64,000 nucleotides of DNA from an uncultured Flavobacteriaceae bacterium (GTDB lineage: Bacteria; Bacteroidota; Bacteroidia; Flavobacteriales; Flavobacteriaceae), in the NCBI GenBank assembly GCA_964353005.1, contig CAYGUC010000008.1, positions 17,579 to 81,578 of the forward strand, written 5' to 3'. Of this stretch, positions 3,639 to 40,036 are shown piece after piece; the stretch's first letter is position 1, and the number at the start of each line of letters is the position of its first letter. The notes under the pieces are model-generated. The model made no database searches. It was given only the letters and a program-made list of their open reading frames with translations, and had not been told where the DNA came from. Both the position numbers and the translations under genes were made by a program.

Positions 3639-3676
3639 TCCAGAAAATAGAATTGAAGTAGCCAATATATAATTTG

Positions 3677-3718: not shown

Positions 3719-3774
3719 TCAACCAAAGCCTTGAAATAATAGAAACAATTAAAAACTATCAAACTCTTGAGAAA

Positions 3775-5688: not shown

Positions 5689-5726
5689 ACATTTATGTTT
5701 GTTTGTTAGAGAGTTGTACTCACAAA

Positions 5727-5767
5727 ATCCTCCCTCAACACTAAGTGTTGAGGGAAGGATTCTTTTT
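5727..5767 (+). terminator. Rho-independent terminator after nagB
   Basis: GC-containing stem atcctccctcaacac / gtgttgagggaaggat with a 3-nt loop, followed by tcttttt. Confidence 0.7.
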
Positions 5768-5840
5768 AAGAATATTTTTCTTCAAACACGTTACAATAAA
5801 AGTTTCTTACATATATAAAGTAATTAATAAACGATAGTTA

Positions 5841-9016: not shown

Positions 9017-9068
9017 CGTATCCTAATTACTTCTTATAACTACACACAAACTCTAAAATTATTTAATT

Positions 9069-18700: not shown

Positions 18701-20107
18701 TTACTTGTTTTCTAAATATTGATTAATAGAAGTCGATAATAAGCTTGAAGGAGAAATAGCTTTTTTAGCAATAATTTCATTGAACATTTCTTTTGCTTGT
18801 CCGTGACTATATTGAGTAGTATGCATTATGTGAGGTTTTTGTTTTCTTGGAAACCATTGCCCTCCAAAATCTGCAATAAAATCATCTTGTTTATAATTTT
18901 TAGGATCGGTATAAATATTGATCCAATAATTTACTTTTGGATTCGGAAAAAGTAAATGAATATCTGAAATTAAAGTAACTCCACTTCCTTCACCAACTGG
19001 ATCAAGGGTAATTAATGTGTCTACAATATAACCTTTTATAGTTAATATCTCGGATAAATGCGCTCCATTCCAACCACCAAGACTATGACCAACAATGTTA
19101 ATTTTAGTTCCATTATTATTGGGTATCACATTTAATACATATTTTTCAATATCATCATTTCCTTTAACCTCATTATACCCTAAATAGTAAGAACTATACT
19201 GCGTATACTGTATTTTGTCTTTAAAGACATCTTCTACATCTTTCATAATTTCCGTTTTCCAATCCGTATAAAACGGTTCTTTATCCCCAGCGCCACCAAT
19301 AAAAAAGGTGACTATTTGTTTGTATGTAGCTTTGGTATTTATATTTGGATTAAGGCTACCTACATGGGCATATATTGTAGCGGTATGTTTTCCTTTGCTT
19401 ACTTGTATAGGTGTTTTTAATATTCCATCATCATACGTACCACCTGTAGTGAGTTTTTGATGTTGCGAGGTATCCTCATCGTCATAATTAACAGACCATT
19501 GTATCTCATTTAGGTCATCTCCTTCTTCATAGTTTTTTAGTGTAGCGTAATAGTAATACTCATGTTTAGGGCTAATATAGTTTATCTTATTCCCTCTTTC
19601 ATCAAATGGACCATTTACATCTGTTACTTTTATTGGGTCATTTTCTTGTTCATTCTCTACAGCTTGATAGGGCATTTGCTCACTAGGAAATACCCAACTC
19701 TCTTGCCAAGGTTTTATCAAAGTTATTCCTTTTACTTCTTGTATAGCTGCAGAGATTGTCATTGTTACTGTCATCGGTTCTTCTCCTATAGCAGTAAATT
19801 TTTCTTTCCAATAGATTAAAGCAGCATCATTAAATTTGTATTCAAAAAGGATGATACCATCAAAATCTCCTTGATAAAATACAATTTTGCCTTCTGTTAA
19901 TGTGCAGAATTCATTTTTTTGACTATGGGTCATCCACCGCAATAGTCTGTCATCATCATAACCAGAAGTAAAGGCCAGGGTAACAAGACCTCCCATTGGT
20001 ATCTCACCACAGCGCCCTGTTTTAGGATTAAAAAATCTATAATATTGTAAATCTGTCCATAATACTTCTCGTTCTGTTCCCAAAACGAATAATTTGGCTT
20101 TGATCAT
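18701..20107 (-). CDS. TssD (Bacteroidetes-type Hcp) N-terminal domain fused to a C-terminal alpha/beta-hydrolase (lipase-like) domain
   Basis: N-terminal residues 1 to about 135 match the Bacteroidetes TssD pattern (KAKLFVLGTEREVL...GEIPMGGLVTLAFTS...LLRWM...GKIVFYQGD...FNDAALI...GEEPMTVTMTISA). The C-terminal part has GGAGD and the nucleophile elbow IVGHSLGGWNGAH. Confidence 0.75.
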   Translation of the reverse strand: MIKAKLFVLGTEREVLWTDLQYYRFFNPKTGRCGEIPMGGLVTLAFTSGYDDDRLLRWMTHSQKNEFCTLTEGKIVFYQGDFDGIILFEYKFNDAALIYWKEKFTAIGEEPMTVTMTISAAIQEVKGITLIKPWQESWVFPSEQMPYQAVENEQENDPIKVTDVNGPFDERGNKINYISPKHEYYYYATLKNYEEGDDLNEIQWSVNYDDEDTSQHQKLTTGGTYDDGILKTPIQVSKGKHTATIYAHVGSLNPNINTKATYKQIVTFFIGGAGDKEPFYTDWKTEIMKDVEDVFKDKIQYTQYSSYYLGYNEVKGNDDIEKYVLNVIPNNNGTKINIVGHSLGGWNGAHLSEILTIKGYIVDTLITLDPVGEGSGVTLISDIHLLFPNPKVNYWINIYTDPKNYKQDDFIADFGGQWFPRKQKPHIMHTTQYSHGQAKEMFNEIIAKKAISPSSLLSTSINQYLENK

Positions 20108-24840: not shown

Positions 24841-24855
24841 TGCAACTTTGGTGCA
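24841..24855. promoter_or_regulatory. Palindrome TGCAACTTTGGTGCA, 5 bp upstream of the ATG at 24861 (site 1 of 3)
   Basis: Near-perfect inverted repeat (one mismatch). Nearly identical to the sites at 31060 and 37040. Confidence 0.5.
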
Positions 24856-24860
24856 ATAAG

Positions 24861-25208
24861 ATGAAAAATATAAAGACTTTCTCTTCCATTATTAGATTGC
24901 CTTTATTGGCATGGGTACTCTTATTGGTGTTTTTAACCAACCCGATAATTGAAGGGGTTCATCATCTTACAATTCTACATTCTGATACTAGTCCAATCTC
25001 TAATGATCTGGAACTACACTCTTCTAATCCAGATTGTATACTATGCGATTTTCTAATAGATAGAAAGGTTCCTTATTTATTATCCAATTTTACCATAATA
25101 GAGGATATTCCAAAAGATGTTATGCATTTCGCACCAAACTTATTGGAAGATTTATACGTATTTGATATTCTTCTATTTCCTTTGGCAAACAGCCCTCCTT
25201 TATCCTAA
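24861..25208 (+). CDS. Small membrane-anchored His/Cys-motif protein (115 aa from the ATG at 24861)
   Basis: N-terminal TM (LPLLAWVLLLVFL), then GVHHLTILHSD...CILCD and a C-terminal SPPLS. Paralogous to 52543-52851. The track start at 24822 is a GTG, and the internal ATG is preferred. Confidence 0.6.
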   Translation: MKNIKTFSSIIRLPLLAWVLLLVFLTNPIIEGVHHLTILHSDTSPISNDLELHSSNPDCILCDFLIDRKVPYLLSNFTIIEDIPKDVMHFAPNLLEDLYVFDILLFPLANSPPLS

Positions 25209-25372
25209 AAAGTTTCGATTAGCAAGAAGCTAAAAAACTTATTTCTACTTATAAAATAATATAACTACTCTTTTTTAATAAAAGTAAGATAGTATGTACT
25301 ACTAAGTATTGTATATCTAAATATTAGAATACTCAAACATTTTACAGGCTTAACCAATAACTCTATAAACCC

Positions 25373-26071
25373 GTGCTACAAGCTATTAATTTAACAAAAA
25401 AATATCATAACCACACTGCTTTAGATAATTTAAACTTAACTGTAAATCGAGGAGATATTTTTTGTCTTCTTGGTCAAAACGGAGCAGGTAAAACAACTAC
25501 TATTAATCTTTTTTTGGGCTTTATTTCTCCTTCTAAAGGTAAAGCCCTTATAAATGGGGTTTTAGTTCAACAAAATGATAATGCTACCAAAAAATTCTTA
25601 GCCTATATCCCAGAAGTAGTTATGTTGTATAGCAATTTGACTAGTATAGAAAATCTGGATTTTTTTAGCAGGCTTGCTGGTTTTACATATTCTAAAGAGG
25701 AACTGGAGAAATTTCTGTGGTCTGTAGGATTACCTAACGATGCTTTTTATAAACGTTTAGGGCAATACTCTAAAGGGATGCGCCAAAAAGTAGGTATTGC
25801 TATTGCTATTGCCAAAAATGCAGATGTTTTATTAATGGATGAGCCTACATCTGGATTAGATCCTATGGCGATAAATGAATTTACAGAATTAGTAAAAAAT
25901 TTGAGCAACCAAGGTAAAGTAGTTCTAATCGCTACTCATGATCTTTTAAACGCAGTAGCTATAGGAACCAGAATAGGTATTATGCGTCGGGGTTGTTTGG
26001 TACATGAATTATCTAATGATAATATTAATGCAAACGAGCTTCAAGAAGTGTACTTAGAAACTATTTTATAA
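25373..26071 (+). CDS. ABC transporter ATP-binding protein
   Basis: Walker A (GQNGAGKTT), signature (YSKGMRQK), Walker B (LLMDEPTSGLD). GTG start. Confidence 0.9.
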   Translation: MLQAINLTKKYHNHTALDNLNLTVNRGDIFCLLGQNGAGKTTTINLFLGFISPSKGKALINGVLVQQNDNATKKFLAYIPEVVMLYSNLTSIENLDFFSRLAGFTYSKEELEKFLWSVGLPNDAFYKRLGQYSKGMRQKVGIAIAIAKNADVLLMDEPTSGLDPMAINEFTELVKNLSNQGKVVLIATHDLLNAVAIGTRIGIMRRGCLVHELSNDNINANELQEVYLETIL

Positions 26072-26078
26072 AAATAAT

Positions 26079-27473
26079 ATGTGGCTTATTATAGCAAGTA
26101 AAGAGATCAGACAAGCTTTTGGCAACCAAGTTTTTATTTTGTTGTGCATAATTACCTGGAGTATCCTAAGTATTTCTATTATTAACGGGTTTAAAAATTA
26201 CCAAAACATAAAACAACAACAACAAGACGCTGTAAGTTTATTTCATAATGAACTGTCCAAAAAAGATAGAGATCCGCACTCTGCTGCTCACTTCGGAACG
26301 TATATATTTAAACCTTTTACCCCTTTAAGTTTATATGACCCAGGAGTAACTAATTACAGTGGTTCTACCTATAGAGTAGAAGCACATAAACAATCAGAGA
26401 TGAACTTTGCAAGCCCTCCTGATACTACTACAATCCTTCGTTTTGGAGAGCTTTCTGCAAGTACTGTTTTACAGTTATTGATACCGCTGTTAATTATTAT
26501 TATTTCTTTTTCTTCGATCTCTAAAGAAAAAGAGGCAGGAACTCTTAAAATTATTTTTGCGCAAGGAGTACAACATCGCACTTTGTTATGGGGGAAAATT
26601 TTTGGTAATTATTTTATTATTATCCTAATTATTTTACCTGTTTTTATCTGTACTTTAATAACTGGTATATTTAGTACCGATATGTTCTTAAAAGCTATAT
26701 TATTTATAGTGGCTTATAGTTTCTATTTTTTTATAATTACCAGTATTTGTGTACTAATTTCGTATAGAAGTAAGACTTCTAAAGACTCTTTATTATTTCT
26801 TCTTTGCATCTGGATACTCTCTTGTATTGTTTTTCCTAAACTTATTGCTGGCATTGCTACAACAAAGTACCCTCTTATCTCTTATCATGAGTTTCAAGAA
26901 CAAATAGATCATGATTTTTCTTTTGGAATCCATAATGATGGTACTTATAAGGAGCGTAAAGAAAAAACGGAAGCCAAATTACTTGCTCAATATCAGATAG
27001 ACAGTATTTCTCTTTTACCGATAAATATAGATGGAGCATTACTGCAAGCTTCAGAAGACTATAACAGTAAAGTTTATCAATATAGATCTAAACCTGTTAC
27101 GCAACAAATGGAACGACAAAAACATGTATATAAATTAGCATCCTTTTTTACCCCATATATTTCTATTCAACAAGCTTCTATGGCTTTTGCAGGGACCGAT
27201 TTATATCACCATCACAATTTTCATAAAAAAGCCAGAATATATCGGGATGGTTTCGTAAAAACATTAAATACAGAGCTTACCAAAATTCCAAAAGATCAAG
27301 AACATATTGTAAACACTACTTTTTTAAAAAACATGAAACAGTTTAGCTATAATTTACCTTCTGTACGATTTGTATTCGAAAAGCAATACTTGGTATTTCT
27401 ATCTTTTTTTTACTGGTTGGTAGCACTAATACTAGCAATAGAAATAAGTATTAAAAAGAAAAGCATTTTATAA
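26079..27473 (+). CDS. Large ABC-2-type permease (DUF3526-like as recalled)
   Basis: N-terminal TM, a central cluster of about five TM helices, a soluble segment of about 150 aa and a C-terminal TM. Follows the ATPase with an 8-bp gap. Confidence 0.7.
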   Translation: MWLIIASKEIRQAFGNQVFILLCIITWSILSISIINGFKNYQNIKQQQQDAVSLFHNELSKKDRDPHSAAHFGTYIFKPFTPLSLYDPGVTNYSGSTYRVEAHKQSEMNFASPPDTTTILRFGELSASTVLQLLIPLLIIIISFSSISKEKEAGTLKIIFAQGVQHRTLLWGKIFGNYFIIILIILPVFICTLITGIFSTDMFLKAILFIVAYSFYFFIITSICVLISYRSKTSKDSLLFLLCIWILSCIVFPKLIAGIATTKYPLISYHEFQEQIDHDFSFGIHNDGTYKERKEKTEAKLLAQYQIDSISLLPINIDGALLQASEDYNSKVYQYRSKPVTQQMERQKHVYKLASFFTPYISIQQASMAFAGTDLYHHHNFHKKARIYRDGFVKTLNTELTKIPKDQEHIVNTTFLKNMKQFSYNLPSVRFVFEKQYLVFLSFFYWLVALILAIEISIKKKSIL

Positions 27474-27476
27474 AAT

Positions 27477-28913
27477 ATGAAGACTATTTTTTTATTTGAA
27501 TGGAAAAAGTTAGTTCGAAGTTCGTTAAATATATATCTTCTGGTATTCTTTATCTGTTTGGGAGGCTATAGCATTTATTATGGTTACAGTGTTACAAAAA
27601 AACAAGTCTTGGTTATTCATGATTTAGAAAATCTGTACAAAAAACAAGTACAAACTACCATTAGTTATTTTGATGCAGACACTACTACTAACAAGGGAAA
27701 AGCTTTATATAATAAAGCGACTCAACCAGATTGGATAGAGCATTTAATCACCCCAATTGCTACATTTTATCCCAATTCTTTTTCATCTATGGCTATTGGT
27801 CATCGAGATGTATATCCTTTTTACAAGGAGATTTCTACAAAGGATAATTCTTTATATGTTTTTGATGCTAATATTTCAAATCCAGAAATATTAGCTTCTG
27901 GTAATTTTGATTTATCCTTTGTAATCATCTATTTGATTCCTTTACTTATGATCGTTTTGTGTCATAATGTTATCTCTGAAGAAAAAGAACAAGGAACATT
28001 TATACTAATTAAATCGCAAAGTAATCACTTTCAAAAATTTATATTCTATAAATTACTTTTTAGAGCATTACTCCTTTTAATTCTTACTTCGATACTCAGT
28101 ATAGTTGCTGCATATTGGTCTCCTATAAGTTCTCCTTTATCTATTTTGGATTTATTGTGCTGGCAATTTGTAATGATTTGTTATTTGTTTTTTTGGTTTG
28201 CTGTTTGCTATTTATTTATCTCTTTTCAGAAAAATGCTATTGTTACATCTCTGTATATGATTGGCATATGGTTATTACTAAGCTTTGTTATTCCTTCTCT
28301 TTTTAATTTCTATATAGATATTTCTCACCCTACAGGAATAAAAGCAGATATGGCCTCTGAAAAACGAAAAATAGAAGAAAGTGTTTGGGATCTTGAACCT
28401 AAAGTGCTACTCCAAAAATTTTATAGCCATTATCCTGAATATGATACAGAAAACCCTAACGATACTATAAAATACAATCCTAAACATTTTGTTGCTTATT
28501 ATGATGCTCTCGAAAAACAACTAATACCCATAGCCAAAATACATAAGGATAGAGAAAATGAAAGAAAGGAACTAATGTCTAAACTATCTGATTTCATCCC
28601 CACTTTGAAAATACAAAAAACACTAAATCAAATTGGCAATACGGATTTTAATAGCTACAAATACTTTGAAGAATCTACATTGTCGTTTCAGATAAAATGG
28701 AAAAAATTTATTTATCACTTCATCTTTAAAGATAAAAACCTACAAATAAATGATTACTTAACAATGCCAAAATACCCCAAAGTTGGGTTACAAAAACAGT
28801 ATAAAAAAATTTTAGGAAGTGCAATAACCTTTATTTTACTGGCCTTTATCATAATCTTATTACAAACATACGTAACATACAATTCGAATACATATTTAAC
28901 AATCAAACAATGA
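27477..28913 (+). CDS. Large ABC-2-type permease (DUF3526-like as recalled), paralog of the preceding gene
   Basis: Same architecture as 26079-27473. There is a 3-bp gap upstream and a 4-bp overlap with the downstream receptor gene. Confidence 0.7.
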   Translation: MKTIFLFEWKKLVRSSLNIYLLVFFICLGGYSIYYGYSVTKKQVLVIHDLENLYKKQVQTTISYFDADTTTNKGKALYNKATQPDWIEHLITPIATFYPNSFSSMAIGHRDVYPFYKEISTKDNSLYVFDANISNPEILASGNFDLSFVIIYLIPLLMIVLCHNVISEEKEQGTFILIKSQSNHFQKFIFYKLLFRALLLLILTSILSIVAAYWSPISSPLSILDLLCWQFVMICYLFFWFAVCYLFISFQKNAIVTSLYMIGIWLLLSFVIPSLFNFYIDISHPTGIKADMASEKRKIEESVWDLEPKVLLQKFYSHYPEYDTENPNDTIKYNPKHFVAYYDALEKQLIPIAKIHKDRENERKELMSKLSDFIPTLKIQKTLNQIGNTDFNSYKYFEESTLSFQIKWKKFIYHFIFKDKNLQINDYLTMPKYPKVGLQKQYKKILGSAITFILLAFIIILLQTYVTYNSNTYLTIKQ

Positions 28914-31039
28914 ACAAGCACCTTTTAATAGTCGTATTGACTATAGCAATCCCTTTACAAATTTGGGGTCAAACTCCTAAACAAGATAAAGACGATCCCA
29001 AAAAACCAGTTGAATTATCAGAGGTATTGGTTACTCAAAATAAACGAAAAATAAAAAATGACACCATTTCTAGTACTCTAAAAATAGACACTCCATTGAT
29101 TGAGATCCCTCAAAATATCGTTAGTGTATCCTCTTCGCTTTTAAAAGAGCAAGGAGTATTTGTTCTTCGAGATGCTGCTCGTAATGCAAGTGGTGTATAC
29201 TTTGGATTAAACAACGATGTTTTTGACGGCGCAGGAAATTTATATTTAAGAGGTTTTACTCTTAATGGAATTTTTAGAAATGGGCTCCCCAGTGGTGATT
29301 TTAGAGGATCCCAGGATGATGAAGCAATAATAGATCAAATAGAATTTATTAAAGGGCCCGCAGGTTTTTTAGGATCTACTGGTGAGGCTGGAGGAAAGAT
29401 TAATATCGTTACAAAAACCCCTGGTAATTCTAAAATTTTAAATGCTACACTTACAGGAGGTAGCTACAATTTTTATAGAGCTTCTATCGATATGGGTTCT
29501 AGTATAAAAGAAAAAGGGTTCTCATATCGTTTTAATACAGCCTATAATTATCAACAATATTTTGTAGATATTATGGAGAGTCGTAAATATATTATTGCAC
29601 CTGTTGTACAATATAACTTTACCAAACATACTTCTATCTTAGCAGAATATATTTTAAATAATCAAACTGCTATTTCAGGATCTACTTTTACCAAATTTTT
29701 TCCTGTAGACAAAATTTTAACTGATGACAGAAGAGCTAATTATCTTGCAGACCCTGGATTGCCTAATTCTACTTCTAAATCACAAAACGCCAGAGTTGTT
29801 TTTAAACATGAGTTTAATGACAATTGGAGGATAACTCACCAATCGTCTTATTCTAAAACCCCTGCCGAAACATGGTCTTTTTTATCTGAAGAAACATACA
29901 ATGCTGTAGGATTTGATGAGAACGGAAAAACAAACAGACTCGCATGGAGATCTGTTACAGACAATAAAACTCTATCTACCCAGTTTTTTGTAAATGGAAA
30001 GTTTAATACTGGAGAAAAAATAAAACACAAGATATTAATAGGAACGGAATACGCCATATCTAAGGAATCTGTTTATCAAACTTTTGGACTAAAATCATTT
30101 CCTTTTGATATAAATAATTTACAATATGGATTAGATAGAAATGAACTTTTAGATCAAGAAGCTTTTTTAGATTATAGAGCTAACAACCACTTTTTATCTA
30201 TATATTTTTATAACAATATAAAAATAGGCAAAAAATTAAGTATAGATCTTGGAGGACGATATACCGATAATCAAAATGAAACTATTTTTGATCCTAATGC
30301 TACTACATTTGATCAAGATGCTTTTACCCCCAGAGCAGGTATAACATATTTGATCGACAAAAATACTGCGGTATTTGCACTTTATGACGAAAGTTTTGTG
30401 CCCAGAAGCGGTCAAGACAAACAAGGAAACCTTTTTAAGCCAATACGTGGTCAGGATAAAGAACTGGGAATCAAAAAAAACTGGTTTGATGGGTTATTAT
30501 CTACCTCGGTTACTGCTTTTCATATCTCGAGAAATAATATGGTTACGCAAGATCCTGCTGATCCATTATTTAACAGACAACTAGGGCAGATTGTTAGTAA
30601 AGGTGTTGAAATAGATATCCTAGGTAATATAACCAAAAACATAGCTGTATCTGCTAACTATGCGTATACAAAAGCTACCATAACCAAAGATACAGATCCT
30701 GCTATTGTTGGACAGCTTTCTTCTTTTTCTCCAAAAGAACTAATTAATAGTTGGATACGTTATTCTTTTCCTGCCAATACAATTCGTGGTCTTAGTATAA
30801 GTTTAGGACATACTTCTATTATAAAAAGAGCAACCAATACAGTAGGTGCTTTTTTACCAGACTATACCAAATTTGATGGATCTATTGCTTATACAAAAGG
30901 AAAAATAACTACTCGATTATTACTCGATAATCTTACTGATAAACGATATATCTTAACTGGTGATATTTATGAAGGTAATGCATACTATACAGAAGGAACT
31001 CCTTTTAATTTCAAAATCTCGCTAAGTGTTAAGTTGTAG
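28910..31039 (+). CDS. TonB-dependent siderophore-type outer-membrane receptor
   Basis: Signal peptide, plug-domain motifs (IEFIKGPAGFLGSTGEAGGKINIVTK), size of about 700 aa and a terminal barrel strand ending ...ISLSVKL. Confidence 0.85.
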   Translation: MNKHLLIVVLTIAIPLQIWGQTPKQDKDDPKKPVELSEVLVTQNKRKIKNDTISSTLKIDTPLIEIPQNIVSVSSSLLKEQGVFVLRDAARNASGVYFGLNNDVFDGAGNLYLRGFTLNGIFRNGLPSGDFRGSQDDEAIIDQIEFIKGPAGFLGSTGEAGGKINIVTKTPGNSKILNATLTGGSYNFYRASIDMGSSIKEKGFSYRFNTAYNYQQYFVDIMESRKYIIAPVVQYNFTKHTSILAEYILNNQTAISGSTFTKFFPVDKILTDDRRANYLADPGLPNSTSKSQNARVVFKHEFNDNWRITHQSSYSKTPAETWSFLSEETYNAVGFDENGKTNRLAWRSVTDNKTLSTQFFVNGKFNTGEKIKHKILIGTEYAISKESVYQTFGLKSFPFDINNLQYGLDRNELLDQEAFLDYRANNHFLSIYFYNNIKIGKKLSIDLGGRYTDNQNETIFDPNATTFDQDAFTPRAGITYLIDKNTAVFALYDESFVPRSGQDKQGNLFKPIRGQDKELGIKKNWFDGLLSTSVTAFHISRNNMVTQDPADPLFNRQLGQIVSKGVEIDILGNITKNIAVSANYAYTKATITKDTDPAIVGQLSSFSPKELINSWIRYSFPANTIRGLSISLGHTSIIKRATNTVGAFLPDYTKFDGSIAYTKGKITTRLLLDNLTDKRYILTGDIYEGNAYYTEGTPFNFKISLSVKL

Positions 31040-31059
31040 AAAAATCATGTTAATTAAAA

Positions 31060-31074
31060 TGCAACTTAGTTGCA
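31060..31074. promoter_or_regulatory. Palindrome TGCAACTTAGTTGCA (site 2 of 3); could also serve as the receptor-gene terminator stem
   Basis: Perfect inverted repeat, extendable to aaaatgcaac tta gttgcatttt (31056-31078). Lies between the receptor stop (31039) and the precursor start (31167). Confidence 0.5.
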
Positions 31075-31166
31075 TTTTAATTATTTCTTGCTTATTTTTA
31101 ATCGTTGCAACAAAATGGGATAAGCCGACCCCATTTTTATAAGGCATAATTTAAAAATTATCAAAC

Positions 31167-31364
31167 ATGAAAAATTCAAAGAATAAATTAACATTAGATG
31201 AATTACAAGTAGAAAGTTTTGTAACTAGCATCAGTTCTGAAGTATCACAACATATCGCTGGTGGTATGGGTATAGCTAAGCACCCAACTCATACTGGCAG
31301 AACAGATCGTCATGCAGGATGCACATGCGCAAATCAGCTTCAAGGGCCTGCCTTTGATTTATAA
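31167..31364 (+). CDS. Lanthipeptide-type RiPP precursor peptide (33-aa leader ending GG, 32-aa core)
   Basis: MKNSKNKLTLDELQVESFVTSISSEVSQHIAGG | MGIAKHPTHTGRTDRHAGCTCANQLQGPAFDL. Convergent with the LanC-like gene and adjacent to it. Confidence 0.7.
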   Translation: MKNSKNKLTLDELQVESFVTSISSEVSQHIAGGMGIAKHPTHTGRTDRHAGCTCANQLQGPAFDL

Positions 31365-31371
31365 AAATTAT

Positions 31372-31396
31372 ATGCGGGCTATATTATAGCCCGCAT
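31372..31396. terminator. Bidirectional hairpin terminator between the precursor and the LanC-like gene
   Basis: atgcgggctat / atagcccgcat perfect 11-bp stem with a 3-nt loop, followed by T-rich sequence. Confidence 0.8.
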
Positions 31397-31399
31397 TCT

Positions 31400-33346
31400 T
31401 TATTTAGTCTCTATAAAATTTTGTTCCATAAAATATAATAACTGTTGTATCAGTCTATTCTGTATAGTTTCTTCATCATGCGTTCCTAATTTCTTTTTTA
31501 ACAACTCTATTAAATCATACAAAGTTCTTGGTCTTTTTAAGATATCCAGTAGTAAAGTACTAGATAGATTAAGAGGAAATTCTTCTATATCTTGAAGCCC
31601 TAATCTTAATAAAACAGGGTGTATATCTCTATCGATATACTGATTTTTTATACACATATTTTTATCAAATTTTGGCCATTGCCATTCGCAGTTTATTATT
31701 TTGATATTTTTACTTGTCTGAAATGTATATTTATAAAACAAACTTGGGTCTAGGTTTTTAAATTTAGATAGTTGTTTTATAAAAAAATCATTTTTATGTT
31801 CTCGATAAATGTTATAATTAGAATTCACAAGCATTTCTATAGCAGCACTTTCTAACTTAAAGACATCCTTTGCTATTTTGCTTTTTTCTGCATCTAGTGT
31901 TTTTATAAGGGTTGAAATCTTTCTACCAAAACCACGACTATTAAACCCATACTGTCCATTTTTGTAAATTATATCTACACAAATATTATTACTCTCTAAA
32001 AACCAAACGGTTCGTTTTACATATTTTTCGTAAATATTTTTTTTAAAACACTCCAAAGTCACTTTACTCTCTACAGGAAATTGCTTTTTAGATTTAATTC
32101 TTGGTAGAAGTATCGAGTCTATGTTTTTATCTAATATTTGTAAAAATAAATGTCCTATACCCGAAACACCAACTAACAACGCAGGATCTTGTTTATTTGT
32201 ATACCATCCTGATCCATAAAAACCTGTATCCTTCCTATCCTCTATTACTTTATTTACTAAGTTTTGCACTTCATTTGTTAAGGATTTTTCTCTTAAACCT
32301 CTAGAAGCAGTAAGTAGTAACTCTATCCATGACCCAATACCAGTACTTAAAGTATAATTTGGCTCCTTTATCTCTCTTTTAATATCCGAAATAGTTTTAG
32401 TAATTGCTCTTGTTGCAAAATTTTTATATCTCTTTTTTTTAAGAAACCTGTACGCATTAAGTCTTGATAATCCTATACCAGAATTGCCATGTGCCCAAGT
32501 ATTAACATCTTCTTCATTTTCTAAATAATAAGATAAACCTTGCTCTAAGGATATGCTTTTTATTTTTGGGTTATCAGAAACTTGCATATTAATCCAAGAG
32601 CCCAACGAAGTACTATAATATTCGTCCTCATAAGCAAATGCTTTTTCTGCAATCCATTTTAATTCTGGATAATCCAGAGCCTCTCCTATTTCTAATAAAA
32701 CATGTGCAATACCGCATGCCCCATGCGACATACCAATTAGACTATCTATAGTCTCACTAACATACCCCCATTTTAATCCATATTTTGAAATGCGTGCATT
32801 CTTCAATATTTTTTCTATAAGTATTTTAATTGTTTTTTCTTGGTCGGTATCTTTTGTATAGGTATATAATAATGTTATTACAAATAAATTTCCTGCATTT
32901 CCACTTAATAAATCATCTAATTCTACTTCATTTACAATTCCACTTTTAAGTTCTAAAAACAATGCATTTGCTTTATCTAAATTTAATGAGTTTTCTGTAG
33001 CTTCATATAATTTTACTAAAGCATAGATAACCCCAACTGTTCCTGTATAAAAAGTATAGTACTTAGTAGCGAGTGTTTTTATATGATGAATTGACCAGGA
33101 AATACTTTTTTCTGCGATATGTAAATATTTATCCTCTTTAGTATATTTATATAAGGAAATAAAGAATAAAGAAATTCCGGATACTCCATTATAAATTTCT
33201 TCATTTACTTGACTATAAAGCTCTCCATAAGGTTGCTTATGTAATGTTTCCCAATACAACCCATTTGCATCCTCTTTTGAATTCTTAATTAACTCTTCTG
33301 CTATCCACAATACTTCCTTATATACTATATTTTTTATTTTACGCAT
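31400..33346 (-). CDS. LanC-like (lanthionine synthetase C family) protein with an uncharacterised C-terminal extension of about 230 aa
   Basis: Seven GxxG-type toroid repeats (NGVSGISLF, TGTVGVIYAL, SGNAGNLFV, MSHGACGIAHVL, AHGNSGIGLS, STGIGSWIEL, VGVSGIGHLF). The LanC portion ends near aa 415 of 648. Confidence 0.75.
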   Translation of the reverse strand: MRKIKNIVYKEVLWIAEELIKNSKEDANGLYWETLHKQPYGELYSQVNEEIYNGVSGISLFFISLYKYTKEDKYLHIAEKSISWSIHHIKTLATKYYTFYTGTVGVIYALVKLYEATENSLNLDKANALFLELKSGIVNEVELDDLLSGNAGNLFVITLLYTYTKDTDQEKTIKILIEKILKNARISKYGLKWGYVSETIDSLIGMSHGACGIAHVLLEIGEALDYPELKWIAEKAFAYEDEYYSTSLGSWINMQVSDNPKIKSISLEQGLSYYLENEEDVNTWAHGNSGIGLSRLNAYRFLKKKRYKNFATRAITKTISDIKREIKEPNYTLSTGIGSWIELLLTASRGLREKSLTNEVQNLVNKVIEDRKDTGFYGSGWYTNKQDPALLVGVSGIGHLFLQILDKNIDSILLPRIKSKKQFPVESKVTLECFKKNIYEKYVKRTVWFLESNNICVDIIYKNGQYGFNSRGFGRKISTLIKTLDAEKSKIAKDVFKLESAAIEMLVNSNYNIYREHKNDFFIKQLSKFKNLDPSLFYKYTFQTSKNIKIINCEWQWPKFDKNMCIKNQYIDRDIHPVLLRLGLQDIEEFPLNLSSTLLLDILKRPRTLYDLIELLKKKLGTHDEETIQNRLIQQLLYFMEQNFIETK

Positions 33347-34238
33347 CTAGACTTCTATTTTCTAAACATTTATACAATAAATAAACAAGATAAGCCTCGT
33401 CTGCATTTATGATACCTATACGATTATGTGTTATATGCATAAAACTAGTAGTGATACTCAATTCTACCTTTAAGCTGATTTTTTTTTCTTTGTATCCCTT
33501 ATTTACATTCGCATTTTTTAAAAAATATGTGTTTAACCAAGTATCTTTTTGAAGATTTATTTCAATATCTTTTAAGAATGTAGAGATTACTGGTATCATT
33601 TGTTCTTTGTATACATCAAATTTTTTAGCAAATTCTGAAAGAAAAAATTGCTGCTGCTCTTTTTCTGGTTTAGATACATCATATAAAACAGGAAGCCACT
33701 CTTGTACAAAAAGCTTGCAAGCATTCTTCATTTCCTCAGTACTAAATCTTATACTAACAAAAAAAAGCAAATGCATTTTTATTGCTAATAGAAAGGCTGT
33801 ATTGTCTTTCCAGTTTTTAGAATAGTATGCCAAATTATACAATACAACTTCAGAACTGGATTCAAATTGTTTCTCTGCTTCCTCCATTACATGCACACCA
33901 CCATATCTATTTATCTCAGGAATATAATCCACAAATTGAATAGGATTACATAGATTTTTTTTGTCTTTTATTGTATTTTTTTCTGTAATAGACCAATATA
34001 TTTCGCTTTCTTTTTTCAGTCTTTCTTTCCATTTGTTTTCCTTATCTTTTTCGACTAACAATCTTAGCCTTATATGCGGCCCTCCTTCATTATATCGAAT
34101 AAAAAAGTATTTCGACAAACCTTTTTCTTTTTGCATTTTTTCTATAAAAAGATGAACAAAATCTATAAGAAATTTATTTGCGGATCCTTTATAAAATAAA
34201 TACGCTGAAATCCATATTTGATTACTTGTGTCTATCAT
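33339..34238 (-). CDS. Stand-alone LanB C-terminal (SpaB_C / thiopeptide-type glutamate-elimination) domain protein
   Basis: Signature WISAYLFY...KYFFIRYNEGGPHIRLRL. Size of about 300 aa, with an 8-bp overlap onto the LanC-like gene. Confidence 0.75.
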   Translation of the reverse strand: MIDTSNQIWISAYLFYKGSANKFLIDFVHLFIEKMQKEKGLSKYFFIRYNEGGPHIRLRLLVEKDKENKWKERLKKESEIYWSITEKNTIKDKKNLCNPIQFVDYIPEINRYGGVHVMEEAEKQFESSSEVVLYNLAYYSKNWKDNTAFLLAIKMHLLFFVSIRFSTEEMKNACKLFVQEWLPVLYDVSKPEKEQQQFFLSEFAKKFDVYKEQMIPVISTFLKDIEINLQKDTWLNTYFLKNANVNKGYKEKKISLKVELSITTSFMHITHNRIGIINADEAYLVYLLYKCLENRSLDA

Positions 34239-34240
34239 AA

Positions 34241-36958
34241 TTATTTAAAATACCATTGTACCAAGAGTTCATTAACTGGTTGTTCTTTTAGTGTTTCTGT
34301 ATCTGGAGACATCTCTTCAAAATAGATATACTCCTTGGCTTTTTTAAGTAATTTATTCCATAAAATCATAAGTAATGGGCTATCAAATCGAATATATTGT
34401 GGTTTATAATCGTCTGCCTGACCTTGCTCTTTTGTAGTTGAATTAGCTCGTAGATATAAAAAAATCTGATCAGGAAAATTGTGTTTTTGTTTCCATTGGT
34501 TAATGGATAAAAAATAGTCGGCATCACTTTGTTGCTCTCCTTTTTTTGGGATGGATTCTGTAAGCACAGACCATCGTTTTCTTTTTAAAATAATTTGTTT
34601 ATTATATATCAGTCTAGGGAAATAATAAATTTCCTGTTTTGTAGATGTTTTCTTAGTGTCAAATAGTAATTCTTGTACCGCTTTTTGTATTGGTCTAAAA
34701 CTTATTGTCTGGTCTGGAGAAAAATAGGATAACAGTTGGTATAGTTTTGACCGATGATCTAAAGACTCGAGGCAGAGATCAAATGGCAAAATTCGTTTAC
34801 CTGTAACAGAATGTTTTAAGCATACTTCTTGAATATCTTCATCAAAATATACCCGAATATCTTTTACTGCAATTTGTGATTCTATGGGCAAACTGGTATG
34901 CCCATCAGGAATTTTAATTTCGTGATCTAATAATGGAGGGTGAGAGTTCGCATTAAAATAAGATCCATCACTTAACTCCATAAATAAGGATTCTTTAGAA
35001 TTTTGCACATTATGTGTTTTCAAATCCTTTGTTATATTAGGATTAAAAAGATGCAAAAATCGACCACTTGCTCTTCCCATACCTTGAGAAATGCTATTTA
35101 CAACAACTTGAAAATTATTTTCAACATAAAATACTTGCATAAACATTCCTCGAGAAATCAATGGTGTTTTTCTATTGTTTTTCCATTGTTCCTGCATTGT
35201 TTTTAGAATATTAGTATCTATATGTATTTCATCTTTATTTTTATCAATTATTGGTTTTAAAATACATTTAAAATCTTCGATCCATTTACGATAGGTTTGA
35301 TTATAATTTTCTTGATGTTCATCTATATATCTATCTGTATTATCATTCTTAAGATCTTGTTGGGATTTTTTTATATGTAGATAATATAGATTATAAAAAT
35401 CCAAAAGGCTTATTTCTGCTTTTTTACCGTAATAATCTATATAAAAAGATTGTATTCTGTTTCTTTCTTCTTGAAAACTATCTAATGGCTGTAATAGATC
35501 TATAAGACTATTTATATCTTTGATAGCAGTAGTAAGCAGTGTTTTACTAACCTCTCCTCTCTCCTTTATAAAACTATCTTCATATATTAATTTTTCTGTA
35601 GTAAGTGATGGAAGTACATATAGATGTTTTTTTAATTTTTCTGAAGCAAATAAACTTTTATAGTTTTCTTTATATGCTTTATAATCTTTTTTAAAAATGT
35701 TCATGTTTTCTAGAAAATGCTCAAATAGCATACTAAAATCTTTAAACATTTCTTCCAAAATTGTACTTCTCTCTTTTGTATTAGAGGTAGCATAAATTTC
35801 ACAACATACGTGTTGTTTTTCCAAAACTAAAATCGTTTGTTTTAAAGACTGTGAAGATGATTTTATTTGCCTAAGAAAATTCAGTAATTTCGAACTCCAA
35901 TCTGGATCTATCCCCGAAGTTTTAAAATCAAATTCTAAAAGACCTATTTCTACTAATTTTAATAAATACTCTTTTATTTCTTTAGGATTTCCTGCTATAG
36001 ATTCTTGTAACTTTTCAATGAACTCATACATCCTTAAAGAATCTTTTTGCTTTACTATTTCCAAAAGCAATTGTATTACACCAGTATGAGGTATGTTTTG
36101 AAAAGATTCTAAATTATGAAAATTAATAAGAAAAGATACTTTATCCTCTGTTGTTTGGATTGTTGGGTTAAGCTTTAGATATAAATATTCATTAATTTCG
36201 GGATGTAGAATAAGTAGTGTTTTTAAATAATCAAATATCCCGTTATTTAACCTTATTTTACTCTGTATTTCGCCTTTTGCAAGTGTATAGGCATCTTCTT
36301 TTTCAATTAAATTACACACTCCCAGATTAGTAAAAGTGCTAAAAGGAGAAGTCTTAAAGTACATTCGGGTAAGATATCGTAACAAACTATACTCTAATCG
36401 GATTTCTTTTTTACCAAAAGAGGATACTGCTTTTTTTGAAAATGTATCTAACTGATTGTAAAAAACTTTACTCGATAATCTAACTCCTTTTTGAAAAAGT
36501 TCATTTTTTGATAATTCTTGTACTATACAACGATGCTCTCTAATGGTATCTATATATCTACTATCCCAGTTTATAAGTAGCTGCTCTTTCTTTTCTTTTA
36601 AAACAATATAAAGCTCAAATAAATCCTTATTTTCCTTATTTAATTTTTCTAAAAGTTTAATCCTATGTGTAGGAGTAATATTTCTAGAATTATAAACATC
36701 TCTTTTTATATTAATGAAAAATTGCTTGTCTGAAGGTGAGGAAGCCTCCCCTACTAAAGTGTGTAAATAATTACAAAGCTTATCTTTTAGAGTATCTATT
36801 TCTAATCCTAAAGTATTCAATTCTTTTATAAAACCCTTTACCGAATCATCCCTAAGCCTCTCAAAATCTAAATGATTACCAGAAGCATATCGAAGAAACG
36901 AGTATGGAAAAATTTCAAATTTCTCTAGACAATTAGCAGTATTTTTTTTCATTATCAA
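34241..36958 (-). CDS. Lantibiotic dehydratase N-terminal (glutamylation) domain protein (split LanB)
   Basis: 905 aa. The N-terminal F..FPYSFLRYASG and the internal GMGRASGRFLHLF are typical of Lant_dehydr_N as I recall it. A 2-bp gap separates it from the elimination-domain gene. Confidence 0.7.
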   Translation of the reverse strand: MIMKKNTANCLEKFEIFPYSFLRYASGNHLDFERLRDDSVKGFIKELNTLGLEIDTLKDKLCNYLHTLVGEASSPSDKQFFINIKRDVYNSRNITPTHRIKLLEKLNKENKDLFELYIVLKEKKEQLLINWDSRYIDTIREHRCIVQELSKNELFQKGVRLSSKVFYNQLDTFSKKAVSSFGKKEIRLEYSLLRYLTRMYFKTSPFSTFTNLGVCNLIEKEDAYTLAKGEIQSKIRLNNGIFDYLKTLLILHPEINEYLYLKLNPTIQTTEDKVSFLINFHNLESFQNIPHTGVIQLLLEIVKQKDSLRMYEFIEKLQESIAGNPKEIKEYLLKLVEIGLLEFDFKTSGIDPDWSSKLLNFLRQIKSSSQSLKQTILVLEKQHVCCEIYATSNTKERSTILEEMFKDFSMLFEHFLENMNIFKKDYKAYKENYKSLFASEKLKKHLYVLPSLTTEKLIYEDSFIKERGEVSKTLLTTAIKDINSLIDLLQPLDSFQEERNRIQSFYIDYYGKKAEISLLDFYNLYYLHIKKSQQDLKNDNTDRYIDEHQENYNQTYRKWIEDFKCILKPIIDKNKDEIHIDTNILKTMQEQWKNNRKTPLISRGMFMQVFYVENNFQVVVNSISQGMGRASGRFLHLFNPNITKDLKTHNVQNSKESLFMELSDGSYFNANSHPPLLDHEIKIPDGHTSLPIESQIAVKDIRVYFDEDIQEVCLKHSVTGKRILPFDLCLESLDHRSKLYQLLSYFSPDQTISFRPIQKAVQELLFDTKKTSTKQEIYYFPRLIYNKQIILKRKRWSVLTESIPKKGEQQSDADYFLSINQWKQKHNFPDQIFLYLRANSTTKEQGQADDYKPQYIRFDSPLLMILWNKLLKKAKEYIYFEEMSPDTETLKEQPVNELLVQWYFK

Positions 36959-37039
36959 TATAGTATCCTGAGGATGATATCTGTTATATATTCTGTTTTT
37001 GGCTCCAAAATTTTATAAAAAAACAAGCCTGGTAATTTT

Positions 37040-37054
37040 ATGCAACTTTGTTGC
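37040..37054. promoter_or_regulatory. Palindrome TGCAACTTTGTTGCA (site 3 of 3) in the divergent lanB / fur-like intergenic region
   Basis: Perfect inverted repeat. It lies 82 bp upstream of the lanB-N start (minus strand) and 145 bp upstream of the Fur-family gene (plus strand). Confidence 0.55.
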
Positions 37055-37198
37055 AATATATGAATTGTTTTTTAAAATAAATTATCTCTTTTATTGAAAT
37101 GGCATTTATATTATTTATATGTGTAGCCATTAATTATCCATATATTTATCGCACCATAACTTTTATATGCCAATAAATGATTAAATTTACTTTCTGAT

Positions 37199-37654
37199 AT
37201 GAATAAGGAATTTACTAGCTTATTAGAAAAACATCAACTAAGAAAAACGACTCCTCGTTTATCTGTACTTTCTATATTAAAATCCAGAAATACAGCGACT
37301 TCTCAACCAGAACTTGAAGCAATGATCGGAAAAGATGTGGATCGAGTAACTTTATACAGGATTCTTAAAACTTTTGAAGAAAAAGGAATCATTCATAAAA
37401 TACTGGATCTTAACGGAACCGCTAATTATGCAATTTGCCAATCTTCCTGCAAGGAACATGATCATAATGACAATCATGTACATTTTAATTGTACTGTATG
37501 CTTAAATATTTATTGTTTAGAAAACATACAAATTCCAAATATTAAAATGCCATCTGGTTTTGTATCCCATACCACAAATTTTGTATCGTATGGTATCTGT
37601 AAAAAATGTTCTGAAAAAGCAGATCAATATATAGGTTCAAATGATAAAGAATAG
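37199..37654 (+). CDS. Fur-family metalloregulator (Fur/Zur/PerR class not resolvable)
   Basis: Winged-helix region (TTPRLSVLSIL...VTLYRILKTFEEKGIIHK), a His cluster plus CxxC (HDHNDNHVHFNCTVC) and a second CxxC (GICKKC). Confidence 0.85.
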   Translation: MNKEFTSLLEKHQLRKTTPRLSVLSILKSRNTATSQPELEAMIGKDVDRVTLYRILKTFEEKGIIHKILDLNGTANYAICQSSCKEHDHNDNHVHFNCTVCLNIYCLENIQIPNIKMPSGFVSHTTNFVSYGICKKCSEKADQYIGSNDKE

Positions 37655-37780: not shown

Positions 37781-40036
37781 ATGTATAAAAAAATAGTTTT
37801 TGGGATTATAGCAATAGGAATATCCATATTTTTTATCTACCAATTTTTTAAAATAGAAAATACAGAAGTAACAGAAACATTAGAAAATATAACAATTGCA
37901 AAAGAAACCGTTCAAGATAATACATCCTTTGAAAAAGAAATAGAAACACAAACTGATTCTATGGAGGTGTATACAGTTTCTAATCTACGAGATTTTTTAA
38001 ACTCCTTAGGAAATAATCGAATTATAAGAATTAACCAGACTATTAATCTGAGTGAAGAAATACAATATTTTGATTTTAATAAAGAAAATATCTCCTTGAT
38101 AAAAAACGGAAATCATGGTCTTTTAAAATTCGGAAATGAGCACTATAGCATATCAGACGGCGCTTATTCTACCAATTCTCTAGACTCTAATATCGATTTA
38201 TTAGAAAAATATATAGAAACTATATATCAAACCCACCTTCTTGAAATACATAATTGCACTAATCTTATAATTGAAGGAAATAAAAATAATTCTGTTGCTT
38301 TTATAACTAATCAAAATGAAGGTGCAGTAATTTCGTTTCATAAAAATGCTAATCTTACTATAAAAGATCTACAATTTTATCACCATCCTACAGCTAATGG
38401 CGGTTGTGGAGAATATGCCCCAGTAGTAAGCTTTTATGAAGGTAACAACTTGATTATAGATAACTGCTCATTTAATGGCAGTGGTACCGATGGTATTATA
38501 GCTGATAATATTACCAATTTTTTGGTAAATAACAGTAGAATATTTAATTGTAGTAGCACAGGATTTTTTTTGAATACCGTTAAAAATTTTAGATTACAGA
38601 ATAGCAGCATAGATAACAACAATCTGACTAACAGTGTTATTAGCATAAAAAATAGTGATGTTCTGGCTGAAAACACAAATATATTTTCTAATCTAGGATC
38701 AAAAAGTAAGTTCTTATATGTAGATGAAAACTCTACAATTAAATTTAAAAATTGCAAAATCAAAAATAACAAAAGGCTCTATTTAGATCCTGAACATGAA
38801 TTGTTTTTTGAAGAAGATTGCACACTTGAAATATCTGATTTTAAAGACTATGAAGATGATTCCAATAAAAATGAACTTCAAGTAATTAAGGATAAAGAAC
38901 AATTTACTGATAAGAGTTTATCTCTGGCACATATTCCTGGCGTTGTGTTTCATAAAAATAACGATATAAAACAGAATACACTTAAAAAATACGAATCAAA
39001 ACTTGCAAATCTTTACGCAATATTACCTGAGTTCTCTACTATAAATTTTTTTCGCTTAAATACTTCTGATCCGCTAAATTTTGTAGCGCAGGATAGCACT
39101 TATCATGTACCAGGAAATAGGGTTAATGAAGATTATGAAGTAATTTTTTGGGATGGGATAAATAAACCTTTACATATTCGTTTATCTGAAAAAAGAGAAC
39201 CTCTACTAGAGTTTAAAAAGTATTTCGGAGTAGAAACAAAAGAAGAAGTATTAGCATTACTAGAAGGAAATAAAAAAAATATTAGACAAAAAATAAGCAA
39301 CGAACTAATATTTAAAGATATATCCCCAAATTATTACCTGCAACCAGAATCCGTATTTCATATTCCAAAGTATGTAAAATACATTAAAACTGATATTCAT
39401 ATAGAAGGAAAATTAGTTGAATATTATGAATATTTTTTTACAAAGAACAAAAGGTTAGACTCTCTTTTTTCAAGCCAATCATCCTGTACATACAAGATTA
39501 ATTATAATAAAAACGGGATGATAAATTATATAGAAAAGATACATCTAAAATCTAAAAAGAAAACATACTTTTTCTACATTATGTCTAGTGATAGTACTAT
39601 AAGTAAATATGAAACTGATAATTTTGATTATCAAATAACTAAAGACAATCTGGAAAAGGTTTTCACCATTAATGATAAATATGAAATAACTCAAACCAAT
39701 TACCCTCAAACATGGAATAAAAATTATATTCAATATTATAAATTCGAGAATGATAAAGTTGAAATTATTAAGGCAAAAGCAGGCGATTATACTTTTATTT
39801 TGGGGTACGGTTTTGATAACAATAATAAGATTTCTAAGTTCTTTTTTACAAATGAAAATTTAGAACTAAAAGAGGAATATGATTTACTAACTCCAAAATT
39901 CGCCAAAAACCATGTTATTTATAATAAAGATAACGAAGTAGCTTTTTTTTATGATAAAAACAGTAATTGTTCTAAAGTTATAACAAAAATAAATGGGCAG
40001 ATAAGTAAAGTAATAACTCATACTTATAAATTCTAA
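37781..40036 (+). CDS. Membrane-anchored protein with a right-handed parallel beta-helix region and an uncharacterised C-terminal half
   Basis: N-terminal TM (IVFGIIAIGISIFFIY). Repeated N-x-x-I/L-x-N-C/S motifs of about 22 aa (NNLIIDNCSFNGSGTDGIIA, TNFLVNNSRIFNCSSTGFFL, KNFRLQNSSIDNN). Confidence 0.6.
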   Translation: MYKKIVFGIIAIGISIFFIYQFFKIENTEVTETLENITIAKETVQDNTSFEKEIETQTDSMEVYTVSNLRDFLNSLGNNRIIRINQTINLSEEIQYFDFNKENISLIKNGNHGLLKFGNEHYSISDGAYSTNSLDSNIDLLEKYIETIYQTHLLEIHNCTNLIIEGNKNNSVAFITNQNEGAVISFHKNANLTIKDLQFYHHPTANGGCGEYAPVVSFYEGNNLIIDNCSFNGSGTDGIIADNITNFLVNNSRIFNCSSTGFFLNTVKNFRLQNSSIDNNNLTNSVISIKNSDVLAENTNIFSNLGSKSKFLYVDENSTIKFKNCKIKNNKRLYLDPEHELFFEEDCTLEISDFKDYEDDSNKNELQVIKDKEQFTDKSLSLAHIPGVVFHKNNDIKQNTLKKYESKLANLYAILPEFSTINFFRLNTSDPLNFVAQDSTYHVPGNRVNEDYEVIFWDGINKPLHIRLSEKREPLLEFKKYFGVETKEEVLALLEGNKKNIRQKISNELIFKDISPNYYLQPESVFHIPKYVKYIKTDIHIEGKLVEYYEYFFTKNKRLDSLFSSQSSCTYKINYNKNGMINYIEKIHLKSKKKTYFFYIMSSDSTISKYETDNFDYQITKDNLEKVFTINDKYEITQTNYPQTWNKNYIQYYKFENDKVEIIKAKAGDYTFILGYGFDNNNKISKFFFTNENLELKEEYDLLTPKFAKNHVIYNKDNEVAFFYDKNSNCSKVITKINGQISKVITHTYKF

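Follow-up and report, generated by a model that had tools for sequence, protein, structure and literature searches.

A gene cluster of ca. 12.8 kb, at positions 24841-37654 of a 64,000-nucleotide stretch of DNA from an uncultured Flavobacteriaceae bacterium (contig CAYGUC010000008.1; the whole stretch is termed "the window"), probably constitutes a zinc-starvation-induced system that makes and re-imports a zinc-binding peptide, i.e. a zincophore. A probability of about 0.6 was assigned to this reading. The peptide would be derived from a lanthipeptide precursor encoded near the middle of the cluster. A first-pass annotation of the same DNA had proposed that this peptide acts as a metallophore rather than as a lipid II-targeting lantibiotic; that proposal is supported by the zinc binding of the related pinensins, by conservation of the core motif, by the synteny of an outer-membrane receptor, and by three operator-like boxes. 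All positions given below are those of the window unless another locus is named.

The precursor gene comprises the following features.

31167-31364, + strand: lanthipeptide precursor open reading frame (ORF), 65 aa; the translation, MKNSKNKLTLDELQVESFVTSISSEVSQHIAGGMGIAKHPTHTGRTDRHAGCTCANQLQGPAFDL, consists of the leader MKNSKNKLTLDELQVESFVTSISSEVSQHIAGG and the post-GG part MGIAKHPTHTGRTDRHAGCTCANQLQGPAFDL.
31167-31265, + strand: precursor leader, residues 1-33, with GG at 32-33; matched by NF038180 leader_pinensin over residues 7-33 and nearly invariant in alignment A1.
31266-31364, + strand: precursor core region and stop, with the linker MGIAK, HPTHT (31281-31295), T46-D47, H49, C-T-C (31320-31328), and a variable 11-aa tail.
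31372-31396, no strand: intrinsic-terminator hairpin, bidirectional, located where the precursor and lanC genes converge; its 11-bp stem includes 6 G-C pairs and is flanked on either side by T-runs.

The precursor scored 46.3 bits (cut-off 24) against the NCBIfam model NF038180, "pinensin family lanthipeptide", over residues 7-33, and homologues were found at 65-98% identity. With this family match, the homologues, and the terminator hairpin, the ORF is a genuine gene. Its product is assigned, on the basis of the leader match and the shared core, as a pinensin-family class I lanthipeptide precursor. It was the sole precursor found in the window by a six-frame leader-pattern scan and a hidden Markov model (HMM) scan, and no credible RNA element was found around it in Rfam. 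Translation bore out the composition reported in the first-pass annotation: the 32 residues after GG include four Thr, two Cys (in C-T-C), three His, and no Ser. The annotation had also placed the start of the core directly after GG. The residue count is correct, but MGIAK is probably a trimmed linker and the mature peptide probably begins at His39, because the 2026 pinensin paper (PMC13532221) counts His as residue 1 and the stretch between GG and HPTHT varies in both length and sequence among precursors.

The core motif was followed through increasingly distant sequences. Residues H39, P40, T41, H42, T43, D47, H49, C52, T53, and C54 were unchanged across the seven-sequence alignment A1, which represents the CTC subtype, and H-P-T-H-T-x2-[TS]-D-x1-2-H-x2-3-C-T-C was constant in relatives from Aquimarina, Pedobacter, Fulvivirga, and a Bacteroidia metagenome-assembled genome (MAG). 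The codons for the conserved core residues were swapped synonymously between loci (CAC/CAT, CCA/CCT/CCG/CCC, ACN, TGC/TGT). The looser pattern [HE]-[PE]-T-H-T-x2-[TS]-D...H...C was carried by the precursor homologues and by the precursors of the 25 fetched loci (one taken from each), and the HPTHT..TD..H..C part was also present in the Chitinophaga peptides that NCBI names as pinensin-family members. When 1.84 billion cluster representatives were searched without filters, about a dozen 50%-identity clusters with an H-[PD]-T-H-T core were returned (the second motif position may thus also be Asp); weaker matches covered the leader only. As judged from its invariance in A1 and its recurrence in related loci and cluster representatives, the His/Cys pattern is conserved beyond chance. 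The expectation that orthologous precursors would keep these positions was therefore borne out in the alignment, the related loci, the codon comparison, and the cluster representatives.

Two subtypes were distinguished by the C-terminal half. Precursors from Chitinophaga, Sphingobacterium, Pedobacter caeni, and P. steynii end in C-T-T-x-x-C. Those from the window, A. muelleri, Aquimarina sp. MAR_2010_214, Pedobacter sp. CG_S7, a Bacteroidia MAG, and Fulvivirga sp. M361 have C-T-C followed by a variable tail. In the window precursor, the C-terminal C-T-T-x-x-C of the NCBI-named Chitinophaga peptides is absent, and C-T-C plus the tail ANQLQGPAFDL is found instead. The tail of the Fulvivirga precursor (L020, 11839-12102, - strand), DNGNHDHDHFIAG, contains three His beyond the conserved core.

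Metal binding by the founding members of the family has been measured. Isothermal titration calorimetry (ITC) gave dissociation constants (Kd) for Zn(II) of 3.5 nM (pinensin A) and 6.3 nM (pinensin B), and for Cu(II) of 420 and 129 nM, respectively (Lambropoulou et al., Microbiol Spectr, July 2026; PMC13532221). His1 and His12 were proposed as the ligands, and the authors suggested that scavenging of transition metals may be part of the pinensins' role (PMC13532221). What the first-pass annotation had offered as a speculation on metal binding is thus experimentally true for the family prototype.

The regulatory features of the cluster are as follows.

24841-24855, no strand: operator-like box 1, TGCAACTTTGGTGCA, just upstream of the operon for the small protein, ABC transporter, and receptor; matching position in L001, L002, and L006.
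31060-31074, no strand: operator-like box 2, TGCAACTTAGTTGCA, within a 33-bp perfect palindrome (31051-31083), its center 100 bp 5' of the precursor ATG.
37041-37055, no strand: operator-like box 3, TGCAACTTTGTTGCA, in the divergent intergenic region between lanB and the fur-like gene; matching position in L001, L002, and L006.
37199-37654, + strand: Fur-family regulator, 151 aa, candidate Zur; PF01475.

The window contains exactly three copies of the sequence TGCAAC-N3-GTTGCA, where 0.07 would be expected, and no more than one match was obtained in each of 100 shuffles. Each of the three promoter regions of the cluster holds one box, and at every related locus the box was found in the matching intergenic regions; in L001, L002, L003, and L005 it lies 92-101 bp upstream of the precursor. 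The possibility that the box-2 palindrome is simply a terminator of the receptor gene was rejected: the box is also present at two sites with no adjacent gene end, and it recurs in all loci. Between box 2 and the precursor start, a self-complementary octamer, GTTGCAAC, is located at 31104-31111; it corresponds to the two inner half-sites of the box fused to one another.

The Fur-family regulator named in the first-pass annotation was confirmed. Alignment A5 of its orthogroup features seven invariant Cys along with H89, D91, H93, and H95, and the matches of the protein in the PDB are to generic Fur. The orthogroup is broad in Sphingobacteriia (623 matches), and the orthologue in Mucilaginibacter mallensis has the box ca. 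100 bp upstream. A Fur-family gene adjoins the cluster in the window and in five of the fetched loci, representing four distinct genomic places.

To the extent that the metal can be read from the genes that the box accompanies, zinc is favored over copper or nickel. Public metagenome contigs were scanned blind with TTGCAACWWWGTTGCAA, which returned 120 loci, and the downstream genes were read where the box was intergenic. The box was directly upstream of COG0523 genes in three loci, of MerC genes in six (often paired with SCO1/SenC), and of Fur-family genes in four, one of these being divergent from a ZIP zinc transporter; it also directly preceded one ZnuA gene and TonB-dependent receptor genes. 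Genes for COG0523, ZIP, ZnuA, MerC, and Fur-family proteins are usual members of Zur regulons, and the placement of the box upstream of them is, in terms of gene content, a Zur-regulon signature. In L017, a Bacteroidia MAG whose precursor is of the CTC type (HPTHTEETDKHETCTC...), MerC, COG0523, FolE, COG0523, and another COG0523 come after the Fur-like gene, and weaker tandem boxes (2-3 mismatches) lie ahead of these genes. In four loci (L032, L035, L111, and L146), the gene directly downstream of the box encodes a His-rich, multi-pass membrane protein with the motifs HPxHVVLSAIVTA and WLPCCxSDIVFPLLFV and a terminal His cluster; the L032 copy had no Pfam match. This protein is a candidate for an uncharacterized zinc transporter. 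The first-pass annotation had allowed for Zn, Cu, or Ni coordination; of these, zinc is the favored one.

Upstream of the precursor, the cluster contains an operon for transport.

24861-25208, + strand: small membrane-anchored protein, 115 aa from the ATG at 24861; transmembrane (TM) helix, HH(H) and CxxC motifs, and a C-terminal ANSPP.
25373-26071, + strand: ABC transporter ATPase; PF00005; similar to DrrA-type and lantibiotic-protection ATPases, under the cut-offs of those models.
26079-27473, + strand: ABC-2 permease with DUF3526; PF12679 and PF12040; syntenic in most related loci.
27477-28913, + strand: second ABC-2 permease with DUF3526; PF12679 and PF12040; syntenic in most related loci.
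28910-31039, + strand: TonB-dependent, siderophore-type outer-membrane receptor; TIGR01783, 235.5 bits (cut-off 223.5); plug (residues 63-162) and barrel.

The adjacent TonB-dependent receptor, which had been cited in favor of a metallophore, was confirmed at the cut-off for siderophore receptors. Pfam identified no domain in it other than plug and barrel, and none N-terminal to the plug; no signaling domain was therefore detected. The receptor and the two DUF3526 permeases adjoin lanB and lanC in 20 of the 25 fetched loci (Aquimarina, Pedobacter, Chitinophaga, and Sphingobacterium), in two arrangements, and three of the other five loci end at a contig edge. The receptor orthologues beside lanB/lanC are 41-91% identical. 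Overall, the receptor and the ABC-2/DUF3526 genes accompany the biosynthetic genes in at least five genera. No mention of DUF3526 was found in the literature searched. The small protein opens the transporter/receptor operon in the Aquimarina, Pedobacter, and Chitinophaga loci, i.e. in three classes, with H34, C59, and C62 invariant (alignment A3; counterparts at 3690-4037 of L001, 3589-4011 of L002, and 3747-4049 of L003). It had no Pfam or NCBIfam match and may be a membrane metal-binding accessory protein.

Downstream of the precursor and on the opposite strand lie the biosynthetic genes.

31400-33346, - strand: LanC-like cyclase, 648 aa, zinc ligands lost, with a C-terminal extension of ca. 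235 aa; PF05147 over residues 47-411 (1.7e-49).
33339-34238, - strand: split LanB, glutamate-elimination domain, 299 aa; PF14028, TIGR03891.
34241-36958, - strand: split LanB, glutamylation (N-terminal dehydratase) domain, 905-aa ORF, likely start at ATG 36952; PF04738.

Both LanB domains are thus present, on two separate polypeptides, which is the split-LanB arrangement described for pinensin (PMC7268733). The best score of the LanC-like domain was to LanM cyclase domains (TIGR03897), in agreement with the published placement of pinensin-family LanCs with the LanM type (PMC7268733). Alignment to LicM2 revealed that WCHG is replaced by WAHG and LCHG by LSTG, while the catalytic histidine of SHG is retained. 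WAHG is invariant in five orthologues, and the His of the second motif is absent from all five. The zinc-less LanC-like partner had been counted earlier as support for a function other than that of a lantibiotic. Its altered motifs were confirmed, but the loss of the zinc ligands is a trait of the pinensin family and no bar to ring formation, because pinensins carry two methyllanthionine rings according to a review (PMC10125368) and the Pedobacter lusitanus cyclase PedC, which also lacks the zinc ligands, still makes rings (PMC10849128).

The length of the C-terminal extension of the LanC-like protein (31400-32110, - strand) is kept in all pinensin-type LanCs (ca. 610-650 aa in total). Its last ca. 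55 residues gave a weak Pfam match (E 0.07, 1 of 14 orthologues) to PqqD, the winged helix of RiPP (peptide made by the ribosome and modified after translation) recognition elements (RREs); this identity is only a lead. A profile search of PDB sequences with the extension returned nothing meaningful, and a single-sequence AlphaFold model of it was unusable (predicted local distance difference test score, pLDDT, 38.7).

In one environmental RNA-Seq run, only two pieces of the 13-kb cluster were assembled, 31157-31316 (the precursor) and 37255-37404 (the fur-like gene); the other runs that contained the locus were essentially DNA. This is weak evidence that the precursor and the fur-like gene are the most highly expressed genes of the cluster.

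From these components, the following course of events may be proposed. Under zinc scarcity, the Fur-family (Zur-type) repressor would leave the three boxes, which are defined here in silico, and three units would be de-repressed: the small-protein/ABC-2/receptor operon, the precursor, and the lanB-lanB-lanC operon along with the fur-like gene. The split LanB, by analogy to its enzyme family, would dehydrate Thr41, Thr43, Thr46, and/or Thr53, and the zinc-independent LanC-like protein would join Cys52 and Cys54 to the products, yielding at most two methyllanthionine rings. Because Thr53 sits between the two Cys, the rings must reach the N-terminal Thr residues; the predicted topology would fold HPTH towards His49 and would differ from that of the C-T-T-x-x-C subtype. 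By homology to pinensin, the leader would be cut after GG and MGIAK trimmed, exposing His39 as residue 1. The secreted peptide would then bind Zn(II), as shown for pinensins A and B, probably via His39, His42, and His49 and possibly Asp47; free Cys thiolates are possible ligands as well. The zinc complex would be recaptured by the adjacent TonB-dependent receptor, and export, recycling, and self-protection are candidate roles for the ABC-2/DUF3526 transporter.

Several observations weigh against this zincophore reading. Some concern the peptide. Zinc binding has been demonstrated only for pinensins of the CTTxxC type, from which the C-terminal half of the present peptide (CTC and an 11-residue tail) differs, and the biological role of the pinensins was explicitly left open by the 2026 authors (PMC13532221). 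Nor are the putative ligands universal: His39 is replaced by Glu in some members (EPTHT, in Sphingobacterium and Pedobacter caeni), and His49 is missing from the family member P0017. A C39-peptidase ABC exporter is encoded in every non-Aquimarina locus fetched, but no such leader-cleaving exporter was found in the three Aquimarina loci (the window, in which the other large ORFs were screened, L001, and L006). Since the GG site is kept in the absence of this exporter, leader removal and export in Aquimarina must be encoded elsewhere or done differently.

Other adverse observations concern the regulation. The metal of the Fur-like protein is not assignable from its sequence, as the PerR, Zur, and Fur models all scored far under their cut-offs; its orthologues elsewhere (three contexts) have housekeeping surroundings; and in the Chitinophaga loci examined, the box is present and an adjacent Fur gene is absent. 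The box directly precedes genes for Pyr_redox_2 oxidoreductases (L065, L075, L096, and L107) and lies likewise directly upstream of genes for HU-type proteins (Bacteroides-like, as judged by eye; L079, L116, L117, L136, and L140). Neither group has an obvious link to zinc, which means that the box is not confined to zinc genes. It also precedes the copper-associated SCO1/SenC. Finally, it shares its form with the Nur box of Streptomyces coelicolor, the 6-5-6 operator (tTGCaa-N5-ttGCAA) of that organism's nickel regulator (PMC2691836).

The alternative that fares best is that the peptide is mainly an antagonistic (antifungal or antibacterial) lanthipeptide, the ABC-2/DUF3526 transporter serving self-protection or export, the receptor serving sensing or non-nutritional re-uptake, and zinc binding being a weapon or a by-product. 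We consider this unlikely, albeit with some evidence in its favor. Pinensins were isolated as antifungals, with minimal inhibitory concentrations (MICs) in the range of first-line antifungal drugs (PMC10125368); the ATPase resembles those of lantibiotic protection and of the DrrA type; and genes for an extracytoplasmic function (ECF) sigma factor and FecR flank one Chitinophaga locus. However, the antibacterial activity of the pinensins is weak (PMC13532221, PMC10125368), the receptor has no detected signaling domain, and a pure antibiotic would not readily account for boxes of the zinc-regulon type or for a conserved receptor of the siderophore type. The antagonistic and zincophore roles could be compatible, with zinc starvation of competitors as the antifungal mechanism.

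It is still less probable that the peptide is a metallophore for nickel, cobalt, copper, or iron. The resemblance to the Nur box speaks for such a metal, as do the SCO1/SenC and MerC genes that follow the box in several metagenomic loci, the affinity of His-rich N-termini for Ni and Cu, and the siderophore type of the receptor; furthermore, the pinensins were assayed with Zn and Cu only (PMC13532221). The same assays found Zn(II) to be bound 20- to 120-fold more tightly than Cu(II) (PMC13532221), and the box is found with COG0523, ZIP, and ZnuA, all of them typical targets of Zur. In addition, His and thioether ligands are poor for Fe(III). It is established in coordination chemistry that a Pro at position 2 blocks the amino-terminal Cu- and Ni-binding (ATCUN-type) site, and the present peptide would have Pro at that position. 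That the product is a secreted, quorum-type signaling peptide sensed via the receptor, which had been entertained in the first-pass annotation and for which one might cite the ECF sigma/FecR pairs near some Chitinophaga loci and the "sensing and import" reportedly proposed for pinensin in a 2015 abstract by Mohr, is very improbable and has no specific support in the window: no signaling domain was detected in the receptor and no sigma/anti-sigma pair in the cluster, regulation appears to go through a Fur-family operator, and a signal has no need of nanomolar zinc affinity.

A broader form of the zincophore reading was given even odds. It states that the pinensin-type peptides are the first lanthipeptide metallophores, i.e. 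Zur-controlled, secreted, receptor-recaptured zincophores in several classes of Bacteroidota, made with a zinc-free LanC, and that their antifungal and metallo-beta-lactamase-countering activities are side effects of zinc withdrawal; as the LanC has no zinc cofactor of its own, the pathway would function under zinc scarcity. The metal binding of the pinensin family has already been published, whereas the variant with CTC and a tail is new. If confirmed, three further points would be novel: the operator of the zinc-regulon type, the linkage to the receptor across the phylum, and the zincophore reading. Secreted zinc chelators are known from a few opine and small-molecule systems, and no RiPP zincophore was found in the literature searched. 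If true, this reading would provide a physiological function for a lanthipeptide family spread over several Bacteroidota classes, would explain the missing zinc ligands of the cyclase, would define a Zur-type operator for Bacteroidota, and would recast the antifungal and beta-lactam-potentiating effects of pinensin as zinc sequestration. The marine CTC-type variant would afford a second scaffold for studying how thioether rings pre-organize a His-based zinc site.

The closest species genome was that of Aquimarina muelleri, in which the LanC-like protein is 83% identical and of which strain DSM 19832 has the same cluster (L006); the G+C content of the window is 31%. Three other regions of the window were noted. 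A 751-aa protein (37781-40036, + strand), which has a TM helix at its N-terminus as well as a right-handed beta-helix, adjoins the fur-like gene and has an A. muelleri counterpart of 74% identity; because it is not conserved in the remaining loci, it probably does not belong to the system. A 468-aa protein (18701-20107, - strand) has an N-terminal Hcp/TssD domain (PF17642, 4e-19) and a long C-terminal part with a GHSLGGW serine-hydrolase motif, and from these domains looks like a type VI secretion Hcp-effector fusion. A locus for utilization of chitin and N-acetylglucosamine (GlcNAc) occupies 50-10901 (+ strand) and includes the end of a SusC-like receptor, a SusD-like protein, a NagB/PIG-L fusion, a BadF-type kinase, a GH20 hexosaminidase with a PA14 domain, and a CBM5/12-bearing EndoS-like protein.

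Among known systems, the cluster is most readily compared to that of pinensins A and B from Chitinophaga pinensis (PinA, PinB1/B2, and PinC). The two have in common the NF038180 leader up to GG, the HPTHT..TD..H..C start of the core, the split LanB, and a LanM-like LanC without the Cys-Cys-His triad, and the Chitinophaga loci examined also have the receptor, the ABC-2/DUF3526 genes, and the same palindromic boxes. They differ in that the peptide of the window has C-T-C and an 11-residue tail where the NCBI-named Chitinophaga peptides have C-T-T-x-x-C at the C-terminus, such that the ring topology must differ, and in that the host here is a marine member of Flavobacteriia, with a Fur-family gene adjacent to the cluster and no C39 ABC exporter found in it. 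The Nur box of S. coelicolor has the same form as (T)TGCAAC-N3-GTTGCA(A) (PMC2691836), but it belongs to another phylum and its regulator is nickel-responsive, whereas the box described here is accompanied by zinc-type genes. The PedA15/PedC system of Pedobacter lusitanus NL19 is likewise a Bacteroidota class I system in which a cyclase without the canonical zinc ligands installs thioether rings (PMC10849128); PedB is reportedly only distantly related to the split PinB (PMC9680876). The core of the PedA15 precursor is unrelated to the window peptide. To our knowledge, neither a receptor nor a connection to metals has been described for that system. The opine zincophores (staphylopine and pseudopaline; Cnt) follow the logic proposed here, in that the operon is repressed by Zur, the chelator is secreted, and re-uptake in Pseudomonas is by the TonB-dependent receptor CntO; they are, however, non-ribosomal products of CntKLM and share no homology with the cluster. 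Methanobactins, the RiPP chalkophores that are secreted and re-imported via the TonB-dependent MbnT, are likewise modified ribosomal peptide metallophores with their own receptor, but they are copper-specific, their ligands are of the oxazolone/thioamide type and are put in place by MbnBC, and they do not belong to the lanthipeptides.

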